Assembly (NCBI GenBank): GCA_026396975.1
Contig: JAPLVT010000024.1
Location: 1 to 32,294 of the forward strand
Direction: 5' to 3'
Length of the DNA stretch: 32,294 nucleotides
Source: Candidatus Iainarchaeum sp.
GTDB lineage: Archaea; Iainarchaeota; Iainarchaeia; Iainarchaeales; GCA-2688035
Position numbers and translations under genes: made by a program
In this document: positions 4,244 to 24,231 of the stretch, in pieces
Layout of the letters: each line of letters begins with the position of its first letter
How positions within the stretch are numbered: the stretch's first letter is position 1
The notes under the pieces: generated by a model
Seen by the model: the letters and a program-made list of their open reading frames with translations, nothing else
The model's database searches: none
What the model was told of the DNA's origin: nothing

Positions 4244-5038
4244 ATGTGGTTATTATATGGGGTTGTTTTGAGAAAATTTTTGTTGATTGCGGGGCTTCTG
4301 CTGCTTTTGTGCGCCACGGCTTCAGCGCAGTTTTACCTGATTGACAGGCACGCGATTGAGATAACTGTTGACAGGCAGGGAAACGCTGTTGTCAGCGACA
4401 AGTTCTTCATCCAGTTCCAGAATCAGCAGCAGTTGGACGATTTCAGGGCAAAGGTTACGCAGATTGGCGTCAACATTGACGCCTGGCTGGCTTACGATGA
4501 CAGGATAAAGCCCGCAATTGGGGCAGAGAGCGACATAACTGTCAGCAAGGTTTCCTTTGTGGAAGAGCCGAGCGCTTACCTTGAGATACGCTATTCCTTG
4601 AACGATACGCTGATGGAGAAGAAAAGCGAGACAAGCAGGGTAATAGGCTATGGCATCAAGGAAAAGTTTTTCAGCGGATTTTTGGAGGGCAGCCTTTGGG
4701 TGATTCCCGCCGGAACAACAATAACAGTTATCCTTCCCGGCGGCGTGGAAGTGCTGCAGCCGGTTGAACCCGACGCCGCAACCAGCGGCAACACAATCAT
4801 GTGGAGCGGCTACAAGTACAGCAACAAGCTGACCTTGAACTACAACGAATTCAAGCAGATCGCTTCTTTCGACCTTGACAAGGCGTTACAGCAGGTAATG
4901 GAAAGCGACTTGTTCTGGGTAATTGTAGCGGTTCTGGCTGTTAGCGCGCTGCTTGGCCTCTGGAAGCGCAGGGCAATAAGCGAAAAAATAGAGCGCTACA
5001 TTGTCGAGCACAGCGACCTGCGGTCAGAAGAAGAGTAA
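4244..5038 (+). CDS. Secreted or membrane-anchored protein of unknown function
   Basis: N-terminal signal-like segment (LLIAGLLLLLCATASAQ) and a C-terminal TM anchor (LFWVIVAVLAVSALLGLWKRR). No recognisable domain. Confidence 0.7.
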   Translation: MWLLYGVVLRKFLLIAGLLLLLCATASAQFYLIDRHAIEITVDRQGNAVVSDKFFIQFQNQQQLDDFRAKVTQIGVNIDAWLAYDDRIKPAIGAESDITVSKVSFVEEPSAYLEIRYSLNDTLMEKKSETSRVIGYGIKEKFFSGFLEGSLWVIPAGTTITVILPGGVEVLQPVEPDAATSGNTIMWSGYKYSNKLTLNYNEFKQIASFDLDKALQQVMESDLFWVIVAVLAVSALLGLWKRRAISEKIERYIVEHSDLRSEEE

Positions 5039-5049
5039 TCCGGCTGTTC

Positions 5050-5056
5050 TTTTTTT
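5050..5056 (+). terminator. Oligo-T tract after 4244..5038
   Basis: T7 run 12 nt after the TAA stop. Confidence 0.4.
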
Positions 5057-5080
5057 GGATTTCCGCGTAAGAACAAAAGC

Positions 5081-5185
5081 CAGCGGAAAACAAATCACGC
5101 TCAGGGAAGATTGAGACCACGCTGGCGCCATTGCGACCCAAAAGCGCTTAGGGATAAGCCGATAAGAAGTGCCTGCGCCAGCGTT
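5081..5185. ncRNA. Copy 2 of the structured intergenic element
   Basis: CAGCGGAAAACAAATCACGCTCAGGGAAGATTGAGACC. 10-bp stem ACGCTGGCGC (5119-5128) pairs with GCGCCAGCGT (5175-5184). The minus-strand reading ends in GAGCGTGATTTGTTTT. Confidence 0.45.
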
Positions 5186-5254
5186 GCATTGGTGGGAGAC
5201 GCGAGCCCGCGGCAGAGGGTTCTTTGCGGAGCCCGCGCCCCTAACAATCCCTTA

Positions 5255-5340
5255 TTTTGCAATAAGCGCGCGAAACAAAAATTCTGTGTTCCAAGACATG
5301 CGGAAAACCTTTCACTTTGCAATAAGCGTGTAGACCAAAA
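5255..5340. repeat. Direct repeat TTTGCAATAAGCG(C/T)G...AAAA x2, period about 59 bp
   Basis: 5255-5280 ttttgcaataagcgcgcgaaacaaaa versus 5314-5340 actttgcaataagcgtgtagaccaaaa. The second copy covers the stop region of the 56-aa ORF (..LIAK*). The first copy would also read ..LIAK* on the minus strand. Confidence 0.6.
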
Positions 5341-5545: not shown

Positions 5546-5905
5546 TTACCCCAAGAAACTGAAATAAAACGTGTTGATGAAGCTGAGCGCCATCAGCAGG
5601 AAAGTTACTATTATCGCGAAGCGCTTCTGCACCCACCCGCCTTCCGGGAAGAACAGACCGACGAACAACTGCACGGGCAACGCGATTATGAACGGCACCA
5701 GAATCCAGCCGGCGAGATTAAGGATATCGGAGAAAGCGTAAAGCAGTCCGACTATTGCAAGGAAGTGCCAGACCGGCTTGTGGCCTTTTTCTGCGATTAT
5801 CACAAAGGCAGCGAAAGCGAAAAGCCAGTGCAGGTTGTTCATTATAAGCCCTGCTATCCAATTAAGGTCGAAGGACAACAGATGCGAAAGGAATTCAACC
5901 AGCAT
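5546..5905 (-). CDS. Four-TM membrane protein, paralog of 6100..6465
   Basis: MLVEFLSHLLSFDLNWIAGLIMNNLHWLFAFAAF aligns with MFFEFAYHVLSFDFVWIASLIMGNLHWLFAFAAC of the upstream gene. The start lies 6 nt after the stop of 5912..6103. Confidence 0.75.
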   Translation of the reverse strand: MLVEFLSHLLSFDLNWIAGLIMNNLHWLFAFAAFVIIAEKGHKPVWHFLAIVGLLYAFSDILNLAGWILVPFIIALPVQLFVGLFFPEGGWVQKRFAIIVTFLLMALSFINTFYFSFLG

Positions 5906-5911
5906 TTTTCA

Positions 5912-6103
5912 TCACTCGTAAGTAACAAGGTTTATTTCAAAAATCCCCATTCCAAGCAACAGCATCAGGCCTGCAAGCGTCAGCATTTCCGGGCCGAAAA
6001 CAGGCATACCAGCGCTTCCCGCCATGCTTGCGAAAATGAAAATGAAGAAAGTGAACATCACTCCGAAAACCGCTTTCTTGAACCAGCGCGCCATTTTTTT
6101 CAC
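5912..6103 (-). CDS. Small two-TM membrane protein (60-63 aa)
   Basis: A GTG start at 6103 overlaps the TGA of the upstream gene (GTGA); the alternative is ATG at 6094. Hydrophobic hairpin with central GMPVFGP, comparable to GITPQFG in the 56-aa ORF. Confidence 0.6.
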   Translation of the reverse strand: MKKMARWFKKAVFGVMFTFFIFIFASMAGSAGMPVFGPEMLTLAGLMLLLGMGIFEINLVTYE

Positions 6104-6465
6104 CTCATAAAAAAATTGTATGCGACAAGCAGAACCAGGAACTGCAGTTCGCTGACTATCACTAGGTGCTTGCTAAGCGACGGGACGCTCTCGGCAAAAG
6201 CAAGCGCCGCAATTTTTGTAATATAGTAAATCGAAAGGAAGCCGCCGACAAAAACAACCCAGCCGCTTATGCTTTCGAAGTCAACCCAAGTCCAGGCGAC
6301 AACTGAAAGCAAAAAAGTGCCGACAGCAATCTTCTTCCACTTGTCGCCGAAAAAGAAAGCGCAGCAGGCGGCAAAAGCAAAAAGCCAGTGAAGATTGCCC
6401 ATGATAAGCGAGGCTATCCACACAAAGTCAAACGACAGCACATGGTAAGCAAACTCGAAAAACAT
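6100..6465 (-). CDS. Four-TM membrane protein, paralog of 5546..5905
   Basis: The track ORF extends to 6489 (MCCGRGQR...). ATG 6465 (MFFEFAYH...) aligns with the paralog's N-terminus and follows AGAGG. The start is uncertain between 6465 and 6489. Confidence 0.75.
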   Translation of the reverse strand: MFFEFAYHVLSFDFVWIASLIMGNLHWLFAFAACCAFFFGDKWKKIAVGTFLLSVVAWTWVDFESISGWVVFVGGFLSIYYITKIAALAFAESVPSLSKHLVIVSELQFLVLLVAYNFFMR

Positions 6466-10359: not shown

Positions 10360-11775
10360 CTACAACAGCGTTGTCTGGCCCTCGCTGTTTTCCGGAACAT
10401 TATCTGATTGCCCTGCTGGTTCTTCCAGCTCTTCCGTGGGTTCCTCGAATTTCGCAAGTGTTTTCCCGTCCACTGCCTGCAGCGGCTTTCTTTTTGCAAC
10501 GCCGCTCTGGCGAATCGCTGCGGCTTCCTCAAAAACCGACTTGGTTTTTTTGGAATCCGGTTTCGCGCCGAGCAGGAATGCAATTTCCTCCGCTGTAAAA
10601 TCGAATGCTGCCGCCAGGCGCGCAGCCTGCTTTTTGTCCGCGAACAGCATGCGCAGGTACGGAAGGTCCTCAGTGATAACAGTGCTGGTGCTGGAATGCG
10701 TGGCTGCGCCGATTTTCTGCGCTACCTGCTTGCGCAAGTTCCTCGCGCCCTTGTTGCCGCCGAGCCTGCGGAGCAAGCCGGGAAACTGGTAGTGTATCCA
10801 GCCAGGGTATTCATGCTCCCTGCTCAGGGCAACGCCGCTGGTGGCAAGCTCGCCGCTGTAGCGGAGGAAGCCGTAGTGCTGCCTCCTCCCGATTCTGCCC
10901 AAAAAAACATCGGCCCTGCTGAGCCTCTCGAAAGCCGCTGCACTGTCGTTCCCCTTCGTGAAGTGCCTCGGGATGTTCTCGTCAACCCAGAGGAAAAGCA
11001 TCTCATCATCAACTTCTGTCTGCTGCCTCGCACGCCTTATTTCGCCGACAGTGCTGCCTTTGAAGACAGCCTCAATTGTCTTGAAGATGTCGTGCTGCCT
11101 TTCCCTGTAGCCGAGGGATTGCACTGCGGCAAGGTCAATTTTTCCGCATAACACGAGAGTCTGCGCGTCAAGCAACGCGCTCCGCATGTCGCCCGCGCAG
11201 CTTCGCGCGAGCGTTTTCACTGCCTCCGGGTCGAAAGGAACGCCTTCCTTCTGCAGAAGCTCGCAAAGGCGCTTCGCGATGCTCAGGTAATTTATTTTTT
11301 TGAATTGCACAAGCACGCAGGCGCCCCTAAGCGGAAGCATTTTCTGGTCGCCGTAAATGTCGTTGGCTGTCAGAATAAGCGGGTTTTTCGACTCTTTCAG
11401 GATTTTTGCCATTGCCCCTGCGCCGCCCCTGTCGGCGTTTCCCTGCAAGCCATCGACCTCGTCAAGAAGCACGAGCCTGAGCGTGCCGCCGAGCGATGCG
11501 CCCTGCGATGCAGCGCCCGCAACGCGCTCTATTACATCCTTTGTCCTGAAATCGCTGGCGTTCATTTCGAACAGCAGCCAGCCCATGAATTTCGCGAGCA
11601 TTGTTGCGAGGCAGGTCTTGCCTGTTCCCGGGGAACCGTAAAGCAGCAGCGGCTGCTGCGGCTTCCCGCTCTGCCATTTCTCGGCCCATGCACGCACAAA
11701 GTCCGCTGCTTCGGAATTGCCCACGAACTCGCTGAAGTCCTTGGGAAAAAAGCGGTCTGTCCACAGTTCGCTCAT
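10360..11775 (-). CDS. rfcL: Replication factor C large subunit
   Basis: MSELWTDRFFPKDFSEFVGN..., Walker A LLLYGSPGTGKTCLA, Walker B LVLLDEVDGL, sensor region LILTANDIY, and an acidic C-terminal tail. Typical archaeal RfcL length (471 aa). Confidence 0.9.
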   Translation of the reverse strand: MSELWTDRFFPKDFSEFVGNSEAADFVRAWAEKWQSGKPQQPLLLYGSPGTGKTCLATMLAKFMGWLLFEMNASDFRTKDVIERVAGAASQGASLGGTLRLVLLDEVDGLQGNADRGGAGAMAKILKESKNPLILTANDIYGDQKMLPLRGACVLVQFKKINYLSIAKRLCELLQKEGVPFDPEAVKTLARSCAGDMRSALLDAQTLVLCGKIDLAAVQSLGYRERQHDIFKTIEAVFKGSTVGEIRRARQQTEVDDEMLFLWVDENIPRHFTKGNDSAAAFERLSRADVFLGRIGRRQHYGFLRYSGELATSGVALSREHEYPGWIHYQFPGLLRRLGGNKGARNLRKQVAQKIGAATHSSTSTVITEDLPYLRMLFADKKQAARLAAAFDFTAEEIAFLLGAKPDSKKTKSVFEEAAAIRQSGVAKRKPLQAVDGKTLAKFEEPTEELEEPAGQSDNVPENSEGQTTLL

Positions 11776-11866
11776 GCCCTACCTGCGCCTCCTCTTTGCA
11801 GGGCGCCTCTGCAACCTTATAATTTCCGACATTCCAAAGACCAGTAAAATCTTCCTTCCAATTAGG

Positions 11867-11880
11867 TTTTTATTATAATT
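11867..11880 (+). promoter_or_regulatory. TATA-like box for the GTPase gene
   Basis: TTTTTATTATAATT is centred about 27 nt upstream of ATG 11901, implying a leaderless transcript. A second box (TTATAATTTCC, about 11815-11825) could serve the divergent rfcL. Confidence 0.45.
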
Positions 11881-11900
11881 ACAGCCCAAGATTTTTCCTT

Positions 11901-13085
11901 ATGCAGATTGGTGTTGTCGGGAAAACAAACACTGGCAAGAGCACTTTTTTCAGCGCGGCGACAATGGTTGCCGCGGAAATCGGCAACAGGCCTTTTGTTA
12001 CCATAAAGCCGAACCAGGGAACAGCCTATGTGACTGCCCCCTGCGTGCACGTGCAGATGGGAAAGCAGTGCATGCCGCAGAACAGCAGGTGCGAGGCAGG
12101 CGTGCGGCTTATTCCGATAACGCTGCTTGATGTAGCGGGGCTTATTGAAGGCGCCTGGCAGGGAAAAGGCCTCGGCAACATGTTCCTGAACGATTTGATG
12201 CAGGCAAGCGCACTGGTGCACGTGCTTGACTGCAGCGGCACAACGGACGCCGAGGGAAATCCAGCAAAGGGCTATGACCCCGCGAAGGATGTTCTTTTTC
12301 TGGAGAAAGAAATCGATTACTGGATAAGGGGCATACTGCAGAAGAACTGGGCGAAAATAAGCAAAACAGCGGCTGCAAGCGAAAAGCCCTGGGAAGCGCT
12401 TGCACAGCCGCTGAGCGGCCTTGGAATGAGCGAAGCCGATGTGAAGAGCGTTTTCGAGAAAGGCTCTTTCAGCGGCAAGCCAAGCCAGTGGAGCGAGGAA
12501 GAGCAACTGGATTTTGCGGAAATGGTGCGCGGGCAGAGCAAGCCAATGCTGATCGCATGCAACAAGATGGACCTGCCGGGCGCGAAAGAGAATCTCGGGC
12601 GCCTGCAGAAACAGTTCCCCGAAAAGATTTTTGTCCCGTGCTGCGCGGAAGCAGAGCTCACGCTCAGGAAAGCCGCAAAAGCCGGGTTGATAGAATACAC
12701 GCCAGGCGCAAAAGAATTCAAAGTGCTCGGCAATCTTGACGAAAGGCAGAGGCACGCGCTGGAATTCATACAAACGCATGTCCTTGACGCCTTCGGCAGC
12801 ACAGGAGTGCAGCAGGCGATAAACCGCACTGCCTTCGAGCTGCTGAAACTTATTTTGGTTTACCCCGTGGAAGACCAGCACAAATTGGTTGACAGCAAGG
12901 GAAACGTGCTGCCGAGCGCCTATCTGCTGAGGCAGGGGGCAACAGCCCTCGACCTCGCGGCAAAAGTCCACAGCAGCTTTGCGGAAAGGTTTGTCGCGGC
13001 AATAGACTGCAAAACAGGGCAAAAAATAGGGAAAGAGCACGCGCTGCGCGACAACGACGTGGTCAAAATACAGCTGCACAACTAG
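11901..13085 (+). CDS. OBG-HflX-like GTPase of the YchF/Ygr210 type with a C-terminal TGS domain
   Basis: G1 GVVGKTNTGKST, G3 LLDVAGLI, G4 ACNKMD, and a C-terminal TGS-like end (GKEHALRDNDVVKIQL). Confidence 0.88.
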   Translation: MQIGVVGKTNTGKSTFFSAATMVAAEIGNRPFVTIKPNQGTAYVTAPCVHVQMGKQCMPQNSRCEAGVRLIPITLLDVAGLIEGAWQGKGLGNMFLNDLMQASALVHVLDCSGTTDAEGNPAKGYDPAKDVLFLEKEIDYWIRGILQKNWAKISKTAAASEKPWEALAQPLSGLGMSEADVKSVFEKGSFSGKPSQWSEEEQLDFAEMVRGQSKPMLIACNKMDLPGAKENLGRLQKQFPEKIFVPCCAEAELTLRKAAKAGLIEYTPGAKEFKVLGNLDERQRHALEFIQTHVLDAFGSTGVQQAINRTAFELLKLILVYPVEDQHKLVDSKGNVLPSAYLLRQGATALDLAAKVHSSFAERFVAAIDCKTGQKIGKEHALRDNDVVKIQLHN

Positions 13086-13125
13086 GGGCAAAAAAACCGC
13101 GGAAAATTAAGCCCGCGCCAAGCGC

Positions 13126-13175
13126 AAAAAAAAAAGCTGCGAAAAAAAGAACATCGCATTAGTTGCAAAAAAAAA
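13126..13175 (-). terminator. Multiple oligo-T tracts (minus strand) downstream of 13217..13498
   Basis: The minus strand shows T9 (13167-13175), T7 (13142-13148) and T10 (13126-13135) after the stop at 13217. Confidence 0.45.
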
Positions 13176-13216
13176 GCGGTTTGCGATAAGGGCTAAAATT
13201 AGGCTGGCAGCATTGC

Positions 13217-13498
13217 TTATTCCGTCTTTGTCTCTTCAACAGTTGTTACTGTTTTTGTGCGCACTAAATTTGGCACAAGCTCGTGCGGGTTTTCTGTTTC
13301 AAGGCGCTTTTCCACCTCAAGCACCCTGCGCAGCAGCGCGCTCTTTTCCTTCTCCGCGCAGCGAAGCCTTGAGAGCGCATAGTAGTGGGTGTTGATTACT
13401 TCGTCAAGCGTAAGGCGCCTTTTCACGCCGATTCTTGCGATTTCCTCAAAATAAATCCTGACAATCTTTGCCGCAACCTCTTCATCGGTCAGACGCAT
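13217..13498 (-). CDS. Small protein (93 aa) paralogous to the C-terminal domain of 13489..14652
   Basis: EEVAAKIVRIYFEEIARIGVKRRLTLDEVINTHYYALSRL aligns with EELVLNLLDIYFTEVIRHGLKRSLTLDEIINAYFYALLRV. Its ATG overlaps the upstream stop by 10 nt (ATGCGTCTGA). Confidence 0.65.
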   Translation of the reverse strand: MRLTDEEVAAKIVRIYFEEIARIGVKRRLTLDEVINTHYYALSRLRCAEKEKSALLRRVLEVEKRLETENPHELVPNLVRTKTVTTVEETKTE

Positions 13499-14652
13499 GT
13501 CTTGTCACTCCTGAAATTTTCCTTGCGGATAACGCCCTTGTTAATTATTTTCTCAATCTCTTGCAGCTCGATGCCCTTTCTCTCGACCCTCAAAAGCGCG
13601 TAGAAATAAGCGTTGATTATTTCATCCAGGGTTAGGCTTCTCTTCAAGCCGTGCCTGATAACCTCTGTGAAATAAATGTCCAAAAGATTCAGGACAAGCT
13701 CTTCATCACCGAAACCCCGCACGCCGGCTGATTCGGAGACAACCCGCTCGGAAAAAACCTTCTTAAGCGCTTTCCTCCCAGCGGCTGTTTTCCCCTTCTG
13801 CACCTCTTCCACAAGAGCAGCGAGACCTCCGGGAAAAACCTCTTTCTCGACAATGACAGGCTTCTCGACAAACCTGCTCTCAAAAACACTTCTCGAAGTA
13901 GCCTGGGGCTGCACAACAACGGGCTGCTGGGAAGCAGCGCTGCGCACAAGCCTCCTTGAAACAACCCTTCTCCGCACAGTTCTCTTCCTGCGCACTCTTT
14001 TCCTGCGCGGCTTTCTCCTAACAAGCCTTCTGCGCCTAACAACGCGCCTGCGCATAACCCTGCGCTTCCTGCGCTGCTTTCTCCTTACAGGCCTTCTCCT
14101 TGCCGCCTTTCTCTTGGCCCTGACTTTTTTCGCAGCGCGCTTTACTTTTCTTTTCTTAGCAGGAATTCTCCTGATAATGATTTTGCGCTTAATAATGACC
14201 TTGGGGGCTTTCTTCACCCTGCGCCTGCGCTTGGGCGGGTTCTTCAGCCTGTTCCAGGCCCTGATTGCCTGCTTCATTGTCTTGCCCTGCTTCAATTGCA
14301 TTGAAATGAAAACATTGTAGGAGGTGCGCTTCTTGTTCTTCTCCGCCGCCTCTCTCTTCCCCTTGTTCCAGAGGCGCACTGACTGCTTGAAGGTAAGGCC
14401 CCTCATTATCTGCGCCCTCATAAAGCGGTTGTAATCGCTAAGGCTCACCTTCTTCCTTTTCTTGGCAAGCATTTCAATCTCTTTCTTAAGCAGCTCCAAT
14501 TCCCTGCCGTGCGCCGCGGTCTTCCTATTGACACGCTGCGCAAGCGCGACCTCTTTTTTAAGGCCCTTTTTCAGGGAGCGAATGTCCTTCTTCACGGTCT
14601 TCGCGGTCCTTACAACGGGCTTTTTCCGCGCATTCTTTTTCTTGACAGCCAA
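13489..14652 (-). CDS. Extremely basic Lys/Arg-rich protein (387 aa): candidate nucleic-acid-binding or chromatin protein
   Basis: TTG start. Two 28-aa repeats (SDYNRFMRAQIMRGLTFKQSVRLWNKGK and TSYNVFISMQLKQGKTMKQAIRAWNRLK). An Arg/Lys tract of about 95 aa (aa 141-237). C-terminal domain shared with 13217..13498. Confidence 0.65.
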   Translation of the reverse strand: MAVKKKNARKKPVVRTAKTVKKDIRSLKKGLKKEVALAQRVNRKTAAHGRELELLKKEIEMLAKKRKKVSLSDYNRFMRAQIMRGLTFKQSVRLWNKGKREAAEKNKKRTSYNVFISMQLKQGKTMKQAIRAWNRLKNPPKRRRRVKKAPKVIIKRKIIIRRIPAKKRKVKRAAKKVRAKRKAARRRPVRRKQRRKRRVMRRRVVRRRRLVRRKPRRKRVRRKRTVRRRVVSRRLVRSAASQQPVVVQPQATSRSVFESRFVEKPVIVEKEVFPGGLAALVEEVQKGKTAAGRKALKKVFSERVVSESAGVRGFGDEELVLNLLDIYFTEVIRHGLKRSLTLDEIINAYFYALLRVERKGIELQEIEKIINKGVIRKENFRSDKTCV

Positions 14653-14688
14653 AACAATTCACTTCTTTTAATTAATCTGTTATATCAA

Positions 14689-15849
14689 CTAATTCCTACT
14701 TTCCTTTTTAATTGTTTCGCTTTCCCGCCCAGCCGTGCCCTCCAACTTGGCTTTTGGAAAAGCAAGGGAAATCATCACAGTGCGCCCTTTTGCGCCCTTT
14801 ATGGCTTCCTCACAGTTGATGAGGCGCATCCGCTCTAGCTTTGCCCTCAGAGTCCTGAACTGGCGCTGGGTGACAGGCTTTTTAACAGACTTTGCGTAAG
14901 CCCCATAAAGGTCGCCGCTGGCAATCTGCGAATTCGCGGGAACAGCGCGCAGTATAGCCAGTTCGTCAGCACTGAGGAAACCAATGCTCTTCTGCAGAAC
15001 AGCCGCGTCAATCTGCGGAAAGACCTTGCGAAGGTGCGCCACCAAAACCTTTTCCGCGTTTTCCTTCTCCGCCTGCCTCCCTGCCTTCAAAAGGCATTCT
15101 ATCGCAATCCGGGCGTCGCCGCCGAATTTCGCGGCATGCGCGGCCGCGACATTAATAACGTCAGCATCAAGCGCGTTGGAATGGAAGGCGTACTGCACTC
15201 TCTCCTTAAGGATGTCCTTGAGCTGCTGCGGAGTGTACTGCTCAAAGCAGACAGTCTGCTCGCCAAGGCTGCTTCGCACTCTCGCGTCAAGCCTTGCCGT
15301 GAACTCCTGCTGGTTGCTGATGAAAATAAGCCCGAAAGCGCCCCTCTGCTGCTCGCCCCCTCTCAGCAGGTCGTAAAACAGCCTGTCGGCTTCGCCCTGG
15401 TGCAGCAGCTGGTCGGCCTCGTCAAGCACTATTACAGGCACAAAGCCTGTTTTGCGCAAAACAGCGTTCAGCTGGGAGTAAGCCTCATCAGTGCCGATGC
15501 CCCTGCGCGGAGTGGGTGCGCCAAGAAAGTTCGCAATCTGAGTAAGAATAGCGTGGCGCGTGTTGAACTGGAAGCAGTTGATGTAAAGCCCTTTTGCCCT
15601 GTCGCTGTACTGCTGCAGCTCGTTCAGGACAAAGCGCACTGTAGCGGTTTTTCCGGTTCCGCTTTTCCCGTAAACAAAAACATTCTGCGGCTTCTTGCCC
15701 TGCAGCACGGGCTGCAGCGAGAAAACAAGCGCGTCAACCTCGGCATCCCTATGTGGCAGGCGCTCCGGCACAAACTCCGGGTAAAGGAAACGCTCGTCCT
15801 TGAACAAATCATGCGACTTTTTCGCCTTCGCAAAAATATTTTCGGGCAT
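14689..15849 (-). CDS. orc1: Orc1/Cdc6 replication initiator
   Basis: FLYPEFVPERLPHRDAEVDAL, Walker A VFVYGKSGTGKTATV, Walker B VIVLDEADQL, and a C-terminal winged helix. ATG 15849 (MPENIF...) is preferred over the 53-codon upstream extension in the track ORF (to 16008). Confidence 0.9.
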   Translation of the reverse strand: MPENIFAKAKKSHDLFKDERFLYPEFVPERLPHRDAEVDALVFSLQPVLQGKKPQNVFVYGKSGTGKTATVRFVLNELQQYSDRAKGLYINCFQFNTRHAILTQIANFLGAPTPRRGIGTDEAYSQLNAVLRKTGFVPVIVLDEADQLLHQGEADRLFYDLLRGGEQQRGAFGLIFISNQQEFTARLDARVRSSLGEQTVCFEQYTPQQLKDILKERVQYAFHSNALDADVINVAAAHAAKFGGDARIAIECLLKAGRQAEKENAEKVLVAHLRKVFPQIDAAVLQKSIGFLSADELAILRAVPANSQIASGDLYGAYAKSVKKPVTQRQFRTLRAKLERMRLINCEEAIKGAKGRTVMISLAFPKAKLEGTAGRESETIKKESRN

Positions 15850-15928
15850 AAAATGTTTCCCACCGCAAGAAGAAATAATGAACAAATCAATTAAATTACT
15901 ATTCAGCCCCTTAGTTAAACGTCGAAAA

Positions 15929-16038
15929 CATGCCCGCAAAAATGCTTTTTGGGACAGCGGGAATTCCGCGGTCGGGCAGTGGCGGGGGCGGAACATAAAT
16001 GCCAGCAAAAATGCTTTTTGGGACAGCGGGAGTGCCGC
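15929..16038. repeat. Tandem direct repeat (two units of about 41 nt, period 69 nt) in the orc1/nfo divergent intergenic region
   Basis: 15929-15969 cATGCCCGCAAAAATGCTTTTTGGGACAGCGGGAATTCCGC versus 15998-16038 aATGCCAGCAAAAATGCTTTTTGGGACAGCGGGAGTGCCGC, about 38/41 identical. A G-rich spacer (GGCAGTGGCGGGGGCGG) lies between them. Confidence 0.85.
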
Positions 16039-16829
16039 ACTCGAGCAAGGCGCCCGACAGCGTAAGCGGAATAGCGCGCGTCAGGGAGCTGGGCCTTGAC
16101 GCCATGGAGCTAGAGTTTGTGAGGGGAGTTCACATGAGCCCTGCGGCCGCAAGGCAGGTTAATGCCGCAAGGGAGAGCAGCGGGGTTCTGCTTAGGGTGC
16201 ACGCGCCGTATTTCATAAACCTCAACAGCGCCGACAAAAAAAAGCTTGCCGCGAGCAGGAAAAGGATAATGGACAGCGCGGAAATAGGCGAATTGTGCGG
16301 CGCGCAAATTGTCACCTTTCACCTCGCATACTTCCAGGGGCAGCAGAAAGAAGAAGTGCTTGAGCGCGTTAGCGGAGTTATTGCCGAATTGGCTGAAGAG
16401 ATTGAGAAGAGCGGATGGAAAATAAGGCTGGCGCCGGAAACAACAGGCAAGCCGTCGCAGCTCGGCAGCCTGCAGGAAACATTGGAGATGTGCGAAAAAG
16501 TGAAAGGGCTGCTGCCGATGGTTGACTGGTCGCATTTGCACGCGAGGCAGAACGGAAGGTTCAAAAGCAAGGCGGATTTCGTGCGCGCAATAGAGGAAAT
16601 GCCCGAAAAGTTTATACATAACCTGCATATGCATGCGAGTGGAATCAATTTCACGGAAAAAGGCGAAAGGAACCACATGAACATGGAGGAAAAGGGAAAC
16701 ACTTTCAATTTCAGGTGGCTTCTTGAAGCCCTGCACGAGAAAAAAGCAGGCGGCTGCATCATCTGCGAAAGCCCTAACCTTGAAGAAGACGCCCTGCTAA
16801 TGCAGAAATACTGGGAAAAGCTCGGGTAA
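15999..16829 (+). CDS. nfo: Endonuclease IV-like AP endonuclease (xylose isomerase-like TIM barrel)
   Basis: FGTAGVP, VHAPYFINLNS, LAPETTGKPSQLGS, MVDWSHLHAR, LHMHASGINF..GERNH, and CESPN. This is the metal-ligand pattern of the AP endonuclease 2 family. Confidence 0.75.
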   Translation: MPAKMLFGTAGVPHSSKAPDSVSGIARVRELGLDAMELEFVRGVHMSPAAARQVNAARESSGVLLRVHAPYFINLNSADKKKLAASRKRIMDSAEIGELCGAQIVTFHLAYFQGQQKEEVLERVSGVIAELAEEIEKSGWKIRLAPETTGKPSQLGSLQETLEMCEKVKGLLPMVDWSHLHARQNGRFKSKADFVRAIEEMPEKFIHNLHMHASGINFTEKGERNHMNMEEKGNTFNFRWLLEALHEKKAGGCIICESPNLEEDALLMQKYWEKLG

Positions 16830-17692: not shown

Positions 17693-18586
17693 TCAGTCCT
17701 TTGTTCCCATGAGCAGGGCTATTGCAAAGGCCGCAGCAAAAGCCGCAAGAGCCCTTGTCTTGAAGTAAGCAATCGAAAGCATCTGCTCTGACGGCAGGCC
17801 CAACCATGCCATTGAAAGAGCCATGGACAAAACCGCGCAAATTGCAAGCGCCAACAGGAACCGCCGCATTCCGTTCAAAAAATCAGTGAAAGAGCTTTTT
17901 ACGAAAATAATGCCGCAGGCAATAAGCAGGACAAAAAGCACTGTGCCCCACAACTCGTCGGGAGCCGCTATTATTATGCCGCTCAGAACGCCGAGCTGCA
18001 CAACCACGGCATAGCAGAAAAGCGCGAGTTCGCTGTTGTCCCTCAGCTGCACGCGAATTTTTTTCAAAAACCCTTCTCCCGTGCCGCCGGACTGCTGCTT
18101 CGAAAGCGGCTTTGCTGCGGCAAACCGGCTTCCCGGTTCGGGCTTTTCCCCGCCCTTGCTTTCCATTGTCGCTGCAGCGGCCTGCAACATCTGCTTTTTG
18201 AGCAGTGCGACTTTCATCGAACGCGCAACGTCAAACTGCTCTTTGAATGAAATCGCGGCTATTGCAAAGGAAAGCAGCGTGCAGGCAATCCCGAAAATAC
18301 CCGCGGCCATTGACCATGCGCTGGCGCCAGCGGTTTCCGCGAAAGAAGCGAGGAAAAAAACCGCTGATGCCGCAAGAACCGCGATCAGCAGTATTCTTTT
18401 TGACAGCCCGGCGAACCATGCGGCGACAGCAACAAGCAGTATCAGCCCTATGAAAATCGTTATTGCGCACATCAGCACGAGCACAAGCGTGCTTACGTCG
18501 CCCTCAATCGCCTTTGGCATTACCTCCTGCAGCGCGTAGCTTGCTGCCTGGTAAAGCATAGCGTTAAGGTCTAATTCTGCTGGCAT
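17693..18586 (-). CDS. Polytopic membrane protein of unknown function
   Basis: 297 aa. N-terminal and C-terminal clusters of TM helices flank a hydrophilic loop (KKQMLQAAAATMESKGGEKPEPGSRF...). Confidence 0.7.
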   Translation of the reverse strand: MPAELDLNAMLYQAASYALQEVMPKAIEGDVSTLVLVLMCAITIFIGLILLVAVAAWFAGLSKRILLIAVLAASAVFFLASFAETAGASAWSMAAGIFGIACTLLSFAIAAISFKEQFDVARSMKVALLKKQMLQAAAATMESKGGEKPEPGSRFAAAKPLSKQQSGGTGEGFLKKIRVQLRDNSELALFCYAVVVQLGVLSGIIIAAPDELWGTVLFVLLIACGIIFVKSSFTDFLNGMRRFLLALAICAVLSMALSMAWLGLPSEQMLSIAYFKTRALAAFAAAFAIALLMGTKD

Positions 18587-19636: not shown

Positions 19637-20602
19637 CATGCCTGCCTTGCTTAGCTCGATTAGGTAATTTGGCTTGTGGGGCTGGCTGTAAAGCACCAGG
19701 TAGCTTGTTGTCTGCTTGACGCCCTTGATAGCGTAAATTTTTTTCAGGAATTCGAACAATTCGGCAACGTTTTTTACCCTCGCTATCGCCATCAGGTTCT
19801 GCCAGGAGAGAATGTGGTTAAGCTCGTGGATTTCATTCATTTCAACGAGCGCCTTCACAACGCTCGAAAGCATTGTTGCATCAACGTCAAGCAGCATTAT
19901 CGCTTTCATTCCGAACCCGAGCTCGTCGTAGTATTCGGGGTTCACAACAGGGGTTTTCTTCATAAGCACATTTTGGCCCCAGAGCATTCTCCAGCGCTTG
20001 CTGACAGTGTTCCTGTGGAGCGAAAGCCCCGCGGCTATTTCGCGCACGCCCAGGTCAGGGTGCAGCATCTTGCAGTTCAAAATGTCAAAATCTGTTTTGC
20101 AGAGCCCCTTGTAGGGGGTTGTGTCTGTTAGAGCGACGTTATGGGTCTTGTACATTGCCACACAGAACAGCACTTTCGGCTCATCGAGCGCGCCTTTCTG
20201 GTTTGTTGCGAGCCGCATCACGAAATCGTTCAGCGCCGCGATATCCTTTTCAATCACTTTTATCGCAAGGTCGTGCTCTCCCGTGATAAACGAAACAACA
20301 TGAATCTGCGGGTAGGAAAGCAGGCTTTCGAAAAGGCTTTTTGCCGCAAAGCCGGGGGCGCCTGCCGCAACCCCGGGCTTGAACTTGAAAAGCACCCACG
20401 CCATTGTGGAAAAGCCCAGGCGCAGGTAATTCAGGCGGAAATTATAGCGCAGAATCACCCTGTCCCTGCGCATCTTTTTGAGGCAGTAAGAGACAGTGCT
20501 AGGCTTAAGGCGCAGCTCCCTGGCGACCTCTGCATCAGGCAGCTGGGCACCCCTGTCGCACACAAAACGCAAAATCTTGATGTCAATTTTGTTTAAGCCC
20601 AC
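19565..20602 (-). CDS. Tandem-duplicated Lrp/AsnC-type transcriptional regulator (two HTH + effector-domain modules)
   Basis: Module 1: IDIKILRFVCDRG..AEVARELRLKPSTVSYCLKKMRRDRVILRYNFRLNYLRLGF. Module 2: TDFDILNCKMLHPDLGVREIAAGLSLHRNTVSKRWRMLWGQNVL..VNPEYYDELGF. GTG start. The 3' end overlaps the convergent ArsR gene by 72 nt. Confidence 0.75.
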   Translation of the reverse strand: MGLNKIDIKILRFVCDRGAQLPDAEVARELRLKPSTVSYCLKKMRRDRVILRYNFRLNYLRLGFSTMAWVLFKFKPGVAAGAPGFAAKSLFESLLSYPQIHVVSFITGEHDLAIKVIEKDIAALNDFVMRLATNQKGALDEPKVLFCVAMYKTHNVALTDTTPYKGLCKTDFDILNCKMLHPDLGVREIAAGLSLHRNTVSKRWRMLWGQNVLMKKTPVVNPEYYDELGFGMKAIMLLDVDATMLSSVVKALVEMNEIHELNHILSWQNLMAIARVKNVAELFEFLKKIYAIKGVKQTTSYLVLYSQPHKPNYLIELSKAGMLPFKLSNCEACQQGKKNNQRQKR

Positions 20603-20745
20603 AAAAAAACACCAGTATATATTATAAAAGCAAATTTATTTAATTCCTTGCTAAAATGCACACTTTTACGGCAAAAAAGCGTGTTTTTGCTAAAAACGTC
20701 TTTAATATTTGTTAACGCATAAGATATAATGGTGGGGGGGCCGGG

Positions 20746-21015
20746 ATGACTACAAAATACAGCATTCTGAAATTCGTTGCCGTAGCTGGCACTATCTTCT
20801 CCATTTACAACGCCTGCACCGAAAGGCTGCTCCTGGAGGACATAATAATCATTATTCTTATAGCGGCAGCCCTTGTGGCAATGGACGCAGAAAACACCAT
20901 GGGAAAGCATCGCAAGAAAGCCGAAGCAGCGCACGAACTCGACAAAAAACTTGAGGCGCTGGACGAAATCGGGGAAATAATACACAAAAAGCTCGAGGGA
21001 ACAGCTGTTAACTAG
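20746..21015 (+). CDS. Small membrane protein with a C-terminal charged helix
   Basis: 89 aa. Two TM helices, then KHRKKAEAAHELDKKLEALDEIGEIIHKKLE. GGTGGGGGGG precedes the ATG. Confidence 0.55.
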   Translation: MTTKYSILKFVAVAGTIFSIYNACTERLLLEDIIIIILIAAALVAMDAENTMGKHRKKAEAAHELDKKLEALDEIGEIIHKKLEGTAVN

Positions 21016-21054
21016 AAACAAGCGCACGCGCCGGCTCTTTTAACAAAACGCGAA

Positions 21055-21083
21055 AAGCGAAAACAAAAAGCGGCTTTTCGCTT
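21055..21083. promoter_or_regulatory. 9-bp inverted repeat upstream of the plus-strand pilin-like operon
   Basis: AAGCGAAAA (21055-21063) and TTTTCGCTT (21075-21083), within a GCGAAAA-rich spacer. AAAATTTAAAC follows about 25 nt before the start at 21136. Confidence 0.3.
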
Positions 21084-21135
21084 AACAACGAAAAAAGCGA
21101 AAAAATTTAAACATCCGCGCGCCAGCGCTTCTTTG

Positions 21136-21669
21136 ATGAACAGCAAGGGCATTTTTTGCATCGCACTACTGCTCGCGGCAGCAGGCATCGAACTGGGGAT
21201 GCGGCAAAGTTCCGCACTTGCAAACGCGAAAACCGCAGAAGCGAAAACAATCGCGCTCGAAGCGGAACAACTGAACATGGCGCGCACGGCAATAGAAGAG
21301 AACACAGACGCCATTATCCTGCAAACACTGCGCGAGCAGCTGCAGCAAAACAAAACACCGGAAGAAATAAAGCGGGCTGTAAATAGCAGGCTCGCGGCGC
21401 TTTTCACTGCAACAGAAAAAAATTACACGCGCGGAATCACAGTGGAATTCGCCATAGGAAGCGGCGGCAACGCAGACACTGCTTTCCTCAACGAAAACAG
21501 CAGCATCATTGTTTTGCCCGCTGGCGGCAGAACAATAGCAGGGGAATACTCCTTCACGGGCGGACTGCTGCGCAACAAGGCGGTGCAGGCGGAAATCACC
21601 GGCAGCAGAACAAGGCAATTGTTCAGGATTCCCGCAGGCTACACCATCAGGGCAACAGTGGTGAAATGA
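21136..21669 (+). CDS. Type IV pilin-like protein (class III signal peptide candidate)
   Basis: The N-terminus MNSKG|IFCIALLLAAAGIEL has a basic residue plus Gly, then a hydrophobic helix. First gene of a four-gene overlapping operon. Confidence 0.55.
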   Translation: MNSKGIFCIALLLAAAGIELGMRQSSALANAKTAEAKTIALEAEQLNMARTAIEENTDAIILQTLREQLQQNKTPEEIKRAVNSRLAALFTATEKNYTRGITVEFAIGSGGNADTAFLNENSSIIVLPAGGRTIAGEYSFTGGLLRNKAVQAEITGSRTRQLFRIPAGYTIRATVVK

Positions 21670-22049
21670 ACGGAAAAAGGGAAAAAAGGTTTTTTGGGGC
21701 AGCGCAGGCGCAGCTCGAAGCGCTCATATGCATCGCTTTTTTCATTGCAATGCTCGGCGCGTTGCTGCATTCCCTTGGCCAGGCAAAGCAGGCGGCGGAC
21801 GCCGCAGGTGAAGCGCTGCAGGCGAAAAGCAACGCGCTGCTCTGCTGCGCTGCAGTGGACAGCACCTACAGCAACAGCGCAGCCGGATTATTGGACGAAG
21901 AGCTGCATTGCACCGCGGAAAGCGGCATGATGCTCAGCAGCGCTGGCGAAAAAACAAAAGAGGCAGACTGCATTGCCCCCGGCATCAAAACTGCGCAGAA
22001 CAGCGGCAAAACAAGGATAGAGGTAACTCTGAATGAGCACTACAGATAG
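21666..22049 (+). CDS. Type IV pilin-like protein (class III signal peptide candidate)
   Basis: KRFFGAA|QAQLEALICIAFFIAMLGALL resembles the QxSxExxxL archaeal class III motif. ATGA overlap with the upstream gene. Confidence 0.6.
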   Translation: MNGKREKRFFGAAQAQLEALICIAFFIAMLGALLHSLGQAKQAADAAGEALQAKSNALLCCAAVDSTYSNSAAGLLDEELHCTAESGMMLSSAGEKTKEADCIAPGIKTAQNSGKTRIEVTLNEHYR

Positions 22050-22572
22050 CGGGGGAAGCCGCACGGGGGGATTTGTGTTCTGCTGTGACCAAGCTATAGC
22101 AAACAAGCGCAGGGGCGCCCGCAAGGGATTTATTTTCTCCCTTGACCTCGCAATCGCGCTAATCACAGTGTTGCTGATGCTGAACCTCGCGCTGCTGCAC
22201 TTCAACGAGGAGAAAGAATCACTGCTGGCGGGCGCAAAAAAATCCGAACTGCAAAAAAACGCGCTGCTGCTGGCGGACTCTCTGGTGAAAAACAACAACG
22301 CGGAAAACCCGCTGCTTGGAGCGGCTTTCTTTGACAACGAAAAGCACAGGGTGCTAAGCAATGTTGTGCAAAAGGAACTGCTGCGGGAAGCACAGGCGGA
22401 TTCTTTCGGAGGCTGGCACGCCCAGGCACTTTCACTAAAAACAAAAAACGGCGCGGAAGAAACATTTTTCGCGGAGGAGAAACAGGCCGGCAAGGACTGC
22501 GTGGCTGTCGAGCGGTTTGTAATCGCGGGAACGGAAAAAGCGCTGCTGCGGGTGGCTGCCTGTGAGGAGTAA
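22033..22572 (+). CDS. Type IV pilin-like protein (class III signal peptide candidate)
   Basis: RRGARKG|FIFSLDLAIALITVLLML is the typical archaeal prepilin/archaellin-type cleavage context. An alternative GTG start at 22075, preceded by GGGGGG, would give a 17-aa leader. Confidence 0.65.
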   Translation: MSTTDSGGSRTGGFVFCCDQAIANKRRGARKGFIFSLDLAIALITVLLMLNLALLHFNEEKESLLAGAKKSELQKNALLLADSLVKNNNAENPLLGAAFFDNEKHRVLSNVVQKELLREAQADSFGGWHAQALSLKTKNGAEETFFAEEKQAGKDCVAVERFVIAGTEKALLRVAACEE

Positions 22573-22912
22573 CGGGCTGTATTTCACTGCCGATGCGCTG
22601 CTTTCGCTGCTGCTTCTATCCGCACTGCTGGCGCTCCCGGCACAGCAGCAGGAAGCTGACTGGAGCCAATTGCTCGCGCTGCAGAAGGAAAACGACCTGC
22701 TAAAAATATGGGCTGCCGAAGGAATGCCTTTCAACGAAGTTGAAATCATTAGCGACGCGCAATTTGTTTTCCCTGGCAGCGGAATGAAAATAACGCTGGA
22801 TGGAAAAGAAATTCCGCTCGGGGCGGAAACAGGCAGCGCGATTGCGTCCGAAATAATTTTTTTTGACAGCGGAATGCAAAAGCACACCATTCAGCTTGCG
22901 GTATACAGGTAA
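22562..22912 (+). CDS. Type IV pilin-like protein (class III signal peptide candidate)
   Basis: (GTG)RSNG|LYFTADALLSLLLLSALLAL. Overlaps the upstream gene by 11 nt. Confidence 0.65.
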   Translation: MRSNGLYFTADALLSLLLLSALLALPAQQQEADWSQLLALQKENDLLKIWAAEGMPFNEVEIISDAQFVFPGSGMKITLDGKEIPLGAETGSAIASEIIFFDSGMQKHTIQLAVYR

Positions 22913-23304
22913 ACAAGCCCGGCCTTCTTTTCCACGACAAAAACCTTCCTGCCGGAGAAAACAATTTTTGGAAAATCAACGGAATTGGGAAGCAATACGC
23001 CCAGGGTTTTTTCTCCGCCAGCCCCGTTTTCCAATGCAACAAAAAAATTTTCCCCCTCAGCCCGGACAGTCCACTTGCCAAAAGGCTGCGCCTCAACAGA
23101 GGCGATGCTGCCATCGGCCAGAAAACGCGCTTCGTCAACAGCGTGCTGCAGGCGGCCTGCAAAAACAGCCGCGTTCTCCCTGTCAAGCGCGAGCAGCGCG
23201 TCGCTGTGGACGCGCTGCACTGTCGGCAGCAGAACTGCGACGACTGCAAAGACAGCCGCAAGCAGCAGCAGGAACTCCAGGCTCAGCTGGCCGCCAGAAC
23301 GCAT
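22891..23304 (-). CDS. Type IV pilin-like protein with a canonical class III signal peptide
   Basis: MRSGG|QLSLEFLLLLAAVFAVVAVLL matches QxSxExxxL exactly. 137 aa. The 3' end overlaps the convergent gene by 22 nt. Confidence 0.75.
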   Translation of the reverse strand: MRSGGQLSLEFLLLLAAVFAVVAVLLPTVQRVHSDALLALDRENAAVFAGRLQHAVDEARFLADGSIASVEAQPFGKWTVRAEGENFFVALENGAGGEKTLGVLLPNSVDFPKIVFSGRKVFVVEKKAGLVYLYTAS

Positions 23305-23315
23305 AATGAAACAAC

Positions 23316-23495
23316 TCAGATGTCCTCTATTTCTTGGAAAATTTTCTTGCTTTTCTCTTCAATGACCTTTGTTCCCTCGCTGCTGGTCTGCTGCAGCTGC
23401 GAAACAAGCAGCAGCACTAGCGCAACCACTGCCGCGAGAACTATTATCAGTTCCACTGAAATCTGCGCCTTCGCGTCCATGAAAAAATTTTTCAT
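23316..23495 (-). CDS. Small (59 aa) major-pilin-like protein with a class III signal peptide
   Basis: MKNFFMDAKA|QISVELIIVLAAVVALVLLLV. GGAGGT lies 8 nt upstream of ATG 23495. The track ORF (to 23894) carries an implausible 133-aa N-terminal extension. Confidence 0.75.
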   Translation of the reverse strand: MKNFFMDAKAQISVELIIVLAAVVALVLLLVSQLQQTSSEGTKVIEEKSKKIFQEIEDI

Positions 23496-23622
23496 GAAAA
23501 AAACCTCCATCGCATAAGAAATTTGCTGCAAAGAGAAGCAATAAAAAGCGCGCGAAAAATTCGGCGCAAGACGAACTCTGCGCAAGTTTGTTTTTAATTG
23601 TTTTCTAGGAAAAGTTCTTTGG

Positions 23623-24231
23623 ATGAACGCAACCGAAAGGAACGATTTGCTGCTTAGTTGGATAACGCTCAGCATAGCGTTCGCGCTAGTGATAAGCGAC
23701 AATTTTTTGAGCTTGATGAGCATTGCCGACGCGCTGCCCACAGCGCTGATTGCTGTTGGCACCGGCTTTGTTTTCCATGAGATGGCACATAGGAATGTCG
23801 CGAGAAAATTCGGCTTCCACGCGGAATTCCGGGCGTGGACCGGCGGGCTAATTTTCGCTGTCCTGATCGCAGTCATAAGCGGCGGCAGGTTCATTTTCGC
23901 AGCGCCGGGGGCAACCTATATTTTTGCCCAGAACATTTCAAGGGAAAAAAACGGGAAAATTAGCATCGCGGGGCCGATAACAAACCTTGTCATCGGATTT
24001 GTTTTGCTAATCGCAGCCGTTGCGTTGGGGGGATTTTTTTCAACTGTCCTTGGCAGCGCGGCATTGATTAACTTCTACTTCGCTTTCTTCAACCTGCTGC
24101 CATTCGGGCCGCTTGACGGCACAAAAGTAATGGCTTGGAACAGCGGCATCTGGGGCGCAACAATCGGAATAGCGGCAATAATGTCTTTCGCACCTGGAAT
24201 TTTCCTAGCCCTGATTGGGGCAACAGCTTAA
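23623..24231 (+). CDS. Site-2 protease-like M50 family membrane metalloprotease
   Basis: HExxH in a TM helix (GFVFHEMAHRNVARKFG) and the second signature FNLLPFGPLDG. Polytopic, 202 aa. Confidence 0.85.
   Translation: MNATERNDLLLSWITLSIAFALVISDNFLSLMSIADALPTALIAVGTGFVFHEMAHRNVARKFGFHAEFRAWTGGLIFAVLIAVISGGRFIFAAPGATYIFAQNISREKNGKISIAGPITNLVIGFVLLIAAVALGGFFSTVLGSAALINFYFAFFNLLPFGPLDGTKVMAWNSGIWGATIGIAAIMSFAPGIFLALIGATA

Follow-up and report, generated by a model that had tools for sequence, protein, structure and literature searches.

Archaeal chromatin is usually described in terms of histones, Alba, Cren7/Sul7d and MC1, and, to our knowledge, DPANN archaea have hardly been studied for chromatin proteins. 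Two further groups of proteins share features with the locus described here. HMG-box proteins (PF00505/PF09011) and YABBY proteins (PF04690), the latter being plant transcription factors, are, as far as we know, regarded as eukaryotic, and protamines, histone H1 tails, Chlamydia Hc1/Hc2 and the mycobacterial HupB tail carry long disordered Arg/Lys tracts without acidic residues; tracts of the protamine/H1 type are expected to condense DNA through charge neutralisation. Here, we describe a pair of overlapping genes, referred to as the long and the short gene, which follows the replication initiator gene orc1/cdc6 in a 32,294-nucleotide stretch of DNA from Candidatus Iainarchaeum sp. (the window; contig JAPLVT010000024.1 of assembly GCA_026396975.1, the source of which is annotated as a ‘Candidatus Diapherotrites archaeon’ metagenome-assembled genome, Iainarchaeota). 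Provisionally, the pair can be placed among the basic architectural proteins that bind nucleic acids; it carries HMG/YABBY-like modules, is built on a new, putative pairing domain and is associated with the initiator in an unusually strict manner. No description of the family was found in Pfam and NCBIfam models, solved structures or the literature searched.

Like the archaeal nucleoid proteins (histones, Alba, Cren7/Sul7d, MC1 and Lrs14), which are small or basic, the pair is a lineage-restricted chromatin candidate, but its architecture is much larger, modular, spread over two genes or fused, and strictly linked to orc1; Pfam, NCBIfam and PDB searches gave no similarity to any of these five groups. 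The likeness to protamines and H1-like proteins is one of composition, for which homology is not expected; unlike these, the long protein has its tract embedded among folded modules and comes with a small partner of its own. The features of the pair, with helices and confidence values (pLDDT) taken from AlphaFold2 (AF2) models, are as follows:

13489..14652, minus strand: long gene, 387 aa, TTG start (MCX6798656.1, NTW59_00995, ‘hypothetical’)
14449..14604, minus strand: N-terminal long helix of the long protein, aa 17-68, pLDDT about 70-87
14356..14439, minus strand: repeat 1, aa 72-99, SDYNRFMRAQIMRGLTFKQSVRLWNKGK, helices 73-83 and 88-106, pLDDT 92-96
14242..14325, minus strand: repeat 2, aa 110-137, TSYNVFISMQLKQGKTMKQAIRAWNRLK, helices 111-121 and 126-137, pLDDT 93-97
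13942..14232, minus strand: protamine-like basic tract, aa 141-237, with 41 R, 19 K and 14 V, no D/E and a net charge of +60
13828..13869, minus strand: conserved linear motif VEKPVIVEKEVFPG, aa 262-275, seen in homologue alignments, within a low-confidence linker
13585..13707, minus strand: C-domain of the long protein, aa 316-356, two helices joined by a G-x-K-R-x-L-x-L-D loop
13217..13498, minus strand: short gene, 93 aa, ATG start (NTW59_00990, ‘hypothetical’)
13364..13486, minus strand: C-domain of the short protein, aa 5-45, from sequence comparison and AF2
13268..13300, minus strand: tail motif ETENPHELVPN of the short protein, family consensus TETKEEL(L/F)P with a nearly invariant Pro, followed by a disordered Thr/Glu-rich tail

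An earlier note, made from the letters of the window alone, had picked out two 28-aa repeats in the long protein and likened them to a shortened HMG-box/YABBY helix pair. The repeats are real, being identical at 12 of 28 positions (BLASTP E = 3e-8), and across 32 units taken from homologues the Y, F, G and W positions do not vary, while N hardly does. The unit starts with K-R-x-P-S-A-Y-N-x-F-(I/M), which is nearly the YABBY/HMG signature, folds as a helix-turn-helix hairpin like these families, aligns with them at the helix-2 Trp and the aromatic core positions and, as in HMGB and UBF, occurs in tandem copies in a highly basic context. Taken alone, the long protein of the window has weak Pfam matches to DUF6434 and PPR_2 and no YABBY match at E <= 1. 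Among 24 homologous repeat regions, YABBY is the most frequent family (19/24, best E = 6.1e-5); DUF6434 (11/24, best E = 0.0013) and HMG_box_2 (7/24, best E = 0.024) are weaker still. In profile-profile comparisons by hhalign, the archaeal unit aligned with YABBY at 95.4% (score 37.2; 33 columns, with a 10-residue deletion), and column-shuffled controls scored 8.3 +/- 2.0 with a maximum of 17.9, none of the 100 reaching 37.2 (z = 14.8). The corresponding value for PPR was 16% (score 16.1, z = 5.6), and YABBY against the HMG box, which served as a positive control, gave 91.7% (score 34.9). At the level of profiles, the likeness proposed in the earlier note has thus held up, with sub-threshold YABBY matches in most homologues.

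The units nevertheless depart from both families in form. Each has two helices in about 30-35 aa in place of the three-helix L-shape of ~70-75 aa of an HMG box, and the S-A-Y-N-x-F-I lead-in, the helix-loop-helix and the helix-2 Trp of YABBY are present, whereas its N-terminal C2C2 zinc finger is absent from the long protein. They are not formal members of the Pfam YABBY or HMG-box families and are best described as a shortened HMG/YABBY-type hairpin without ~10-12 inter-helix residues and without helix 3, joined to an unrelated, putative new dimerisation domain and hosted by DPANN archaea; the likeness might conceivably reflect convergence of a short motif. An exhaustive HMMER search with the repeat in 1.84 billion representatives returned 34 clusters, most with the same archaeal architecture. 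The distant matches P0140 and P0151-P0153 have 2-5 short repeats running into an HMG-type third helix (W-K-x-h-D...Q-x-x-Y-x-D-K-A), and the contigs that encode P0140 and P0153 are eukaryote-like, being sparse in genes and carrying those for Aph-1, a protein kinase and a zinc finger. These eukaryotic short HMG-like repeats aligned with the archaeal unit at 98.4% (score 60.8; phmmer E down to 6.4e-9, the pairwise E values being uncalibrated) and with the HMG box including helix 3 at 94.1% (score 37.4, z = 13.1, for what are short motifs). In P0140 (L087 4262-5401) and P0151, both on eukaryote-like contigs, an N-terminal topoisomerase C-terminal repeat (Toprim_C_rpt) is followed by 4-5 such repeats (PASGYQLYVSEVMKGGMKMGEAAAAWK..D...Q..Y.DK); these proteins represent an unusual shortened HMG-box variant and the nearest non-archaeal relatives of the window repeats.

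The C-terminal part of the long protein recurs as the core of the short protein: aa 314-356 of the former and 3-45 of the latter are identical at 22 of 43 positions (51%, E = 8e-13). This, together with conservation of the pair across dozens of genomes, bears out that the two genes are paralogues, although the shared domain, given as about 60 aa in the earlier note, has a conserved core of only ~43 aa. AF2 predicts a hairpin of helices 316-333 and 342-371 in the long protein (18-sequence alignment) and, in the short protein (64 homologues), helix 5-23, a 7-residue loop and helix 31-68 ahead of the disordered tail, with pLDDT 82-92 in the core. The family consensus is D-E-E-v-A-x-x-h-v-x-h-Y-F-x-E-h-A-R-x-G-x-K-R-x-L-x-L-D-E-h-I-N-x-Y-x-Y-x-L-x-R, with conserved aromatics in helix 1 (IYF) and helix 2 (YYY), and a hairpin of two helices is unlikely to be stable alone. 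Scans of both proteins gave no significant Pfam or NCBIfam match, one to DUF1024 (E = 0.12) being dismissed, and the C-domain profile found chance-level matches only among PDB sequences. A derivation from the Orc1 lid or other parts of Orc1 was rejected (hhalign 0.08%). As modelled, the C-domain is a new two-helix domain without a known relative in Pfam, NCBIfam, PDB or Foldseek searches.

With a pI of about 11.9 and a net charge of +98, the long protein is extremely basic. The basic tract is 62% K+R and about 76% R/K/V, so that its description as almost entirely Arg/Lys/Val was slightly overstated, while its coding nature and conservation were upheld; it is mostly of low pLDDT, i.e. disordered, and homologues have a K/R-rich tract of variable length and sequence in the same place. 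An origin as a non-coding low-complexity artefact was rejected, the frame staying open and conserved domains flanking the tract in all homologues. The N-terminal helix, probably a coiled coil, ends in a motif that is conserved in the homologue alignment, (D/G)(K/R)EL.LL(K/R)KE(I/L)E.L. The linear motif ahead of the C-domain, VEKPV(I/F)V(T/E)K(E/D)VFP in the family, is reminiscent of K-E-E-L-x-P in the short protein's tail, the common pattern being (T/V)-K-(E/D)-(E/V)-(L/V/F)-(F/L/V)-P, and in both proteins could possibly be a docking site for a partner. The long protein has a single Cys, close to its C-terminus, and no signal peptides or transmembrane segments were present in the long, short and homologue sequences read.

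The family is widespread and so far unnamed. The profile of the shared C-domain matched at least 242 proteins; among the 120 matches listed, lengths are 78-124 aa and the named proteins are all ‘hypothetical’ and come from Diapherotrites/Iainarchaeum, Micrarchaeota or unclassified archaea. When genomes were scanned at one per GTDB species, at least 79 loci emerged. These and earlier loci were annotated by means of hidden Markov models of the C-domain (C) and repeat (R), with Orc1, the GTPase, the large subunit of replication factor C (RFC-L) and the AP endonuclease located by phmmer, and 82 of the loci are non-duplicate. In 75 of these orc1 lies upstream on the same strand, i.e. in 75/75 testable loci, since in the other seven the contig ends 59-1732 nt upstream (less than 350 nt in six). 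Measured from orc1, the first domain of the module lies at a median of 389 nt, which amounts to immediate adjacency once the N-terminal portion of the long protein is allowed for, and RFC-L lies downstream of the module in most loci. Both the linkage to orc1 and the conservation of the pair, which the earlier note had put forward for checking, were thus established, and pair, repeats and basic tract are kept in dozens of genomes.

The domains are combined in several ways. Two repeats and two C-domains in two genes (2R-2C), the type of the window, are found at 39 loci; a small protein alone (0R-1C), with a short Lys-rich N-tail and usually 92-210 nt after orc1, at 16; and one repeat with one C-domain in one gene (1R-1C), with orc1 0.5-4.5 kb upstream, at 15. 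The 0R-2C and 1R-2C arrangements account for 5 and 4 loci, and 3R-2C, 2R-1C and a fused 2R-2C gene (L082) for one locus each; both C-domains are also joined in one chain in seven further representative clusters. What the data show is a conserved operon-like orc1-long-short unit with its domains, the fusion of the two C-domains and the linkage to orc1. By reasoning of the Rosetta-stone type, such a series of lone genes, paralogous pairs and fusions argues for C-domains that work two at a time and points to a heterodimer of the window's long and short proteins. The architectures also suggest an evolution from homodimer to heterodimer, the path from one gene through a paralogous pair to a fusion being the one that histones took.

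We tentatively favour the reading that the pair is a lineage-specific, dimerising, non-specific DNA-binding architectural complex that is co-expressed with Orc1. Its parts are not equally secure: binding of nucleic acid by the pair appears probable, pairing of the C-domains rather likely, and DNA is somewhat to be preferred to RNA as the target, whereas it is doubtful whether the pair is functionally tied to Orc1 or the origin in a specific way. In the proposed model, the long subunit would bind DNA without sequence specificity in two ways, the Arg/Lys tract (~97 residues) neutralising charge and condensing DNA and the two mini HMG/YABBY-like hairpins making minor-groove or bending contacts, and the N-terminal coiled-coil helix would add self-association. 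The C-domain of the long protein would pair with that of the short protein, probably as a four-helix bundle, and this pairing would recruit the K-E-E-L-x-P tail motif of the short subunit, possibly a docking site. Because the genes always follow orc1 in a conserved block reaching to the RFC large-subunit gene, the complex would be produced together with the initiator; its most likely target would be the DNA of the chromosome at or around replication, where it would serve either as a nucleoid protein of general kind or as a helper in origin architecture. The proposed chromatin or nucleic-acid role is drawn from charge, domain resemblance and gene neighbourhood.

Several points weigh against this reading. 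No Pfam match reaches its gathering score; all YABBY matches lie below that of their family (28.6 bits), and PPR_2 (PF13041), an RNA-binding helical repeat, was matched in 16/24 repeat regions with a best E of 3.5e-6, which is better than that of YABBY, these matches likewise being all below the gathering score (30 bits). The YABBY, HMG-box and PPR reference sequences used in the hhalign comparisons given above were entered by hand, the archaeal unit aligned directly with the HMG box at only 27% (score 20.3), and the repeat profile found no HMG box among PDB sequences, its matches being at chance level. The Foldseek comparison suggested in the earlier note for relatives of the C-domain and the repeats produced no match for either AF2 model at E < 0.1 (both models against PDB, the long one also against BFVD), negatives that carry little weight for short hairpins and low-confidence regions. 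The conserved neighbourhood includes non-replication genes (Obg-like GTPase and phenylalanyl-tRNA synthetase, PheRS), and, with all loci in one phylum-level group, the linkage to orc1 could be inherited gene order; even so, it has outlasted several rearrangements in which the GTPase and PheRS genes changed place. Finally, Diapherotrites have been reported to encode histones (PMC6136690), so that there is no obvious chromatin gap and the pair would add to histone chromatin and not replace it.

The same evidence has to be held against other explanations, of which the nearest makes the pair a dedicated accessory of replication initiation, i.e. an Orc1/Cdc6 cofactor such as an origin-bending or unwinding helper or a helicase-loading adaptor, and not a general nucleoid protein. 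This would fit the constant position of orc1 at the testable loci, the gap to orc1 of 92-210 nt in 12 of the 16 lineages having only the small protein, the extent of the conserved block from orc1 to the RFC large subunit and the conserved short linear motifs of both proteins, which could dock a partner. It also has analogies of role, without homology, in IHF/HU/Fis with DnaA and in the AT-hook region of S. pombe Orc4, where a non-specific or architectural DNA module is genetically coupled to an initiator, and, again as to role only, in the initiator-associated factor WhiP/Cdt1 of Sulfolobus (PMC3607249). However, other genes separate orc1 from the module in the 1R-1C lineages, with gaps of 0.5-4.5 kb, and likewise in L001 and L004; Pfam, NCBIfam, PDB sequences and hhalign against Orc1 gave no similarity to known initiation factors; a search for ORB-like repeats around orc1 located no origin; and a protein with a charge of +98 resembles a bulk DNA coater more than a specific adaptor. 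We regard such an accessory as unlikely, and as more improbable still the bolder proposal that the module is a replication-initiation component assembling with Orc1/Cdc6 at the Iainarchaeota origin and that its repeats are genuine prokaryotic relatives of HMG-box and YABBY domains. An RNA-binding or ribosome-associated pair, i.e. a lineage-specific ribosomal or ribosome-biogenesis protein that owes its place behind orc1 to inherited gene order, would account for the PPR_2 matches, for a repeat period of 36-38 aa close to that of PPR/TPR and for neighbours including the Obg-like GTPase, PheRS alpha/beta and a NOB1-like PIN protein, and long Arg/Lys tracts are typical of ribosomal protein extensions. 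The unit also shares with PPR/TPR a helical hairpin and an x-Y-N-x-(F/L)-I...G...A pattern. Yet PPR/TPR arrays need many tandem units (of 35 aa in PPR), and the family has one to three per protein, split by basic linkers; the conserved Trp and the basic K-R-x-P-S lead-in are features of HMG/YABBY and not of PPR/TPR; and the hhalign result for PPR falls far behind that for YABBY, so that, with the profile comparisons and shuffled controls taken into account, PPR was placed behind YABBY as an interpretation of the repeats. Moreover, orc1 is a constant neighbour, whereas the genes for the GTPase and PheRS lie on the opposite strand or change position, and the sole ribosomal Pfam match among the repeat regions, Ribosomal_L18, is sub-threshold (2/24, best E = 0.091). 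A role with RNA or the ribosome is thus possible in principle but fits both the profile comparisons and the constant linkage to orc1 less well than the architectural DNA-binding complex, and we hold it to be distinctly unlikely.

Two further explanations were weighed. Long predicted helices and hairpins without detectable homologues, and a C-domain without any assigned function, would also be expected of a structural or scaffold pair unrelated to nucleic acids (coiled-coil cytoskeletal or envelope-associated), in which the basic tract is a disordered spacer; but a +60 tract that is free of acidic residues and K/R-rich across lineages is hard to explain without a polyanion partner, and the sequences read hold no signal peptides or transmembrane segments; we regard this explanation as very improbable. 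The earlier note had also weakly likened the C-domain to a histone fold, and a divergent or truncated histone fold was considered; helix-strand-helix units are regarded as ancestral to histones. The motif likeness, of G-x-K-R-x-L-x-L-D-E to the loops A-E-R-V-S-D-D and R-K-T-I-x-x-x-D, is superficial: the alpha1-L1-alpha2-L2-alpha3 architecture is not there, AF2 predicting two helices followed by disorder and no alpha-3; hhalign of the 64-sequence C-domain profile against HMfB gave 0.03%; and there was no histone or CBFD_NFYB_HMF match in Pfam, PDB sequences or Foldseek against PDB. The suggestion was dropped, and a histone relationship is hardly credible.

On the architectural reading, the family would combine a new pairing domain, a protamine-like tract and YABBY/HMG-like hairpins, and the pair makes a promising candidate for a DNA-packaging or origin-associated factor of archaea that is new. 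Its invariable place behind orc1 leads to a testable hypothesis on origin organisation or licensing in an archaeon with a reduced genome. If the relation to HMG/YABBY were one of true homology, it would have implications for how far a DNA-binding fold that is taken to be eukaryotic reaches back into prokaryotes, and, were the module an initiation component with genuine HMG relatives, the HMG-type DNA-bending hairpin would predate eukaryotes and have been tied from the start to origin recognition.

The pair appears to form an operon with orc1, the first gene, which is bounded by the following features:

14689..15849, minus strand: orc1/cdc6 replication initiator gene (Pfam Cdc6_lid 5.8e-18, AAA_22, Cdc6_C)
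14653..14688, minus strand: 36-nt spacer between orc1 and the long gene, with an A/T-rich stretch and a purine-rich GAAGTGA 8 nt before the TTG
13090..13175, minus strand: four T-runs (T7, T10, T7 and T9 on the minus strand) 3' of the short gene, in the gap where it converges with the gene for the Obg-like GTPase

The stop codon of orc1, at 14689 on the same strand, is 36 nt upstream of the long gene, and the long and short genes overlap by 10 nt (13489-13498), the short ATG preceding the long stop; all positions in the earlier note, including those of the open reading frames (ORFs), the overlap and the adjoining orc1, were correct. The spacer appears too short for an obvious promoter region of its own, and we infer that orc1 and the long gene are co-transcribed. 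Archaeal transcription terminates at T-runs, and the T-runs 3' of the short gene probably mark the end of the operon; gene spacings of 36 nt and -10 nt, with T-runs only after the short gene, are further operon signs. The convergent GTPase gene is of the YGR210-type Obg-like kind, with the RFC large subunit further on. For the long gene, the TTG start proposed earlier is supported by a TGA stop three codons upstream and by the N-terminus MAVKKK, which recurs at the starts of the homologues P0122, P0126, P0127, P0128 and P0130; the first internal Met is M61. The mechanical ORF of orc1 (14689-16008, minus strand, 439 aa from TTG 16008) overlaps the start of the divergent AP-endonuclease gene and is ~55-65 aa longer than its relatives (371-376 aa), the true start likely being the ATG at 15849 (MPENIFAK...), which leaves a divergent intergenic region of 149 nt.

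A recurrent block of AP endonuclease (divergent), orc1, the module, Obg-like GTPase (convergent), RFC large subunit and PheRS is seen at 10360-16829 of the window and at most loci across Iainarchaeota, and in the complete genome CP064981.1 (L037) the module lies inside the first 6.6 kb of the record. Lineages without a long protein include L006, L007, L020, L024, L026, L042, L065, L073, L074 and L084, in which a single C-domain protein (gene at ~6001-6300 or 5001-5300) with a Lys-rich N-tail, MAKKK..., starts 92-210 nt past orc1; gene calls for L006 and L007 show PheRS beta, and not the GTPase, as the downstream neighbour. The same order of orc1, module and GTPase/RFC-L also occurs on contigs from bins named Thaumarchaeota, Candidatus Falkowbacteria and Chloroflexota (L013, L016, L033 and L054); these are probably mis-binned Iainarchaeota contigs.

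In the divergent region between orc1 and the AP-endonuclease gene, a 49-nt direct repeat (15930-15978 and 15999-16047) is 88% identical, with 69 nt from start to start. In the upstream copy, the opening 16 codons of the AP-endonuclease gene are repeated within an ORF of 22 codons, whose TAA stands directly before the real ATG; the repeat could represent a leader ORF, a tandem duplication of recent date, an artefact of the assembly or a piece of an origin or promoter element. This tandemly duplicated 69-nt stretch, from the 5' end of the neighbouring gene, was all that the search for ORB-like origin repeats around orc1 returned, and tRNA and Rfam scans of the window gave no matches. Elsewhere in the window, sizeable ORFs without a Pfam family at E <= 0.001 are found at 4244-5038, 5765-6226, 17693-18586 and 20593-23894, the last region (20.6-23.9 kb) being a run of four or five small ORFs. 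At 24239-27895 on the minus strand, a gene for a CDC48/VCP-type AAA ATPase is split by an intein with a LAGLIDADG homing endonuclease (Intein_splicing 3.7e-19, LAGLIDADG_3 1e-23).

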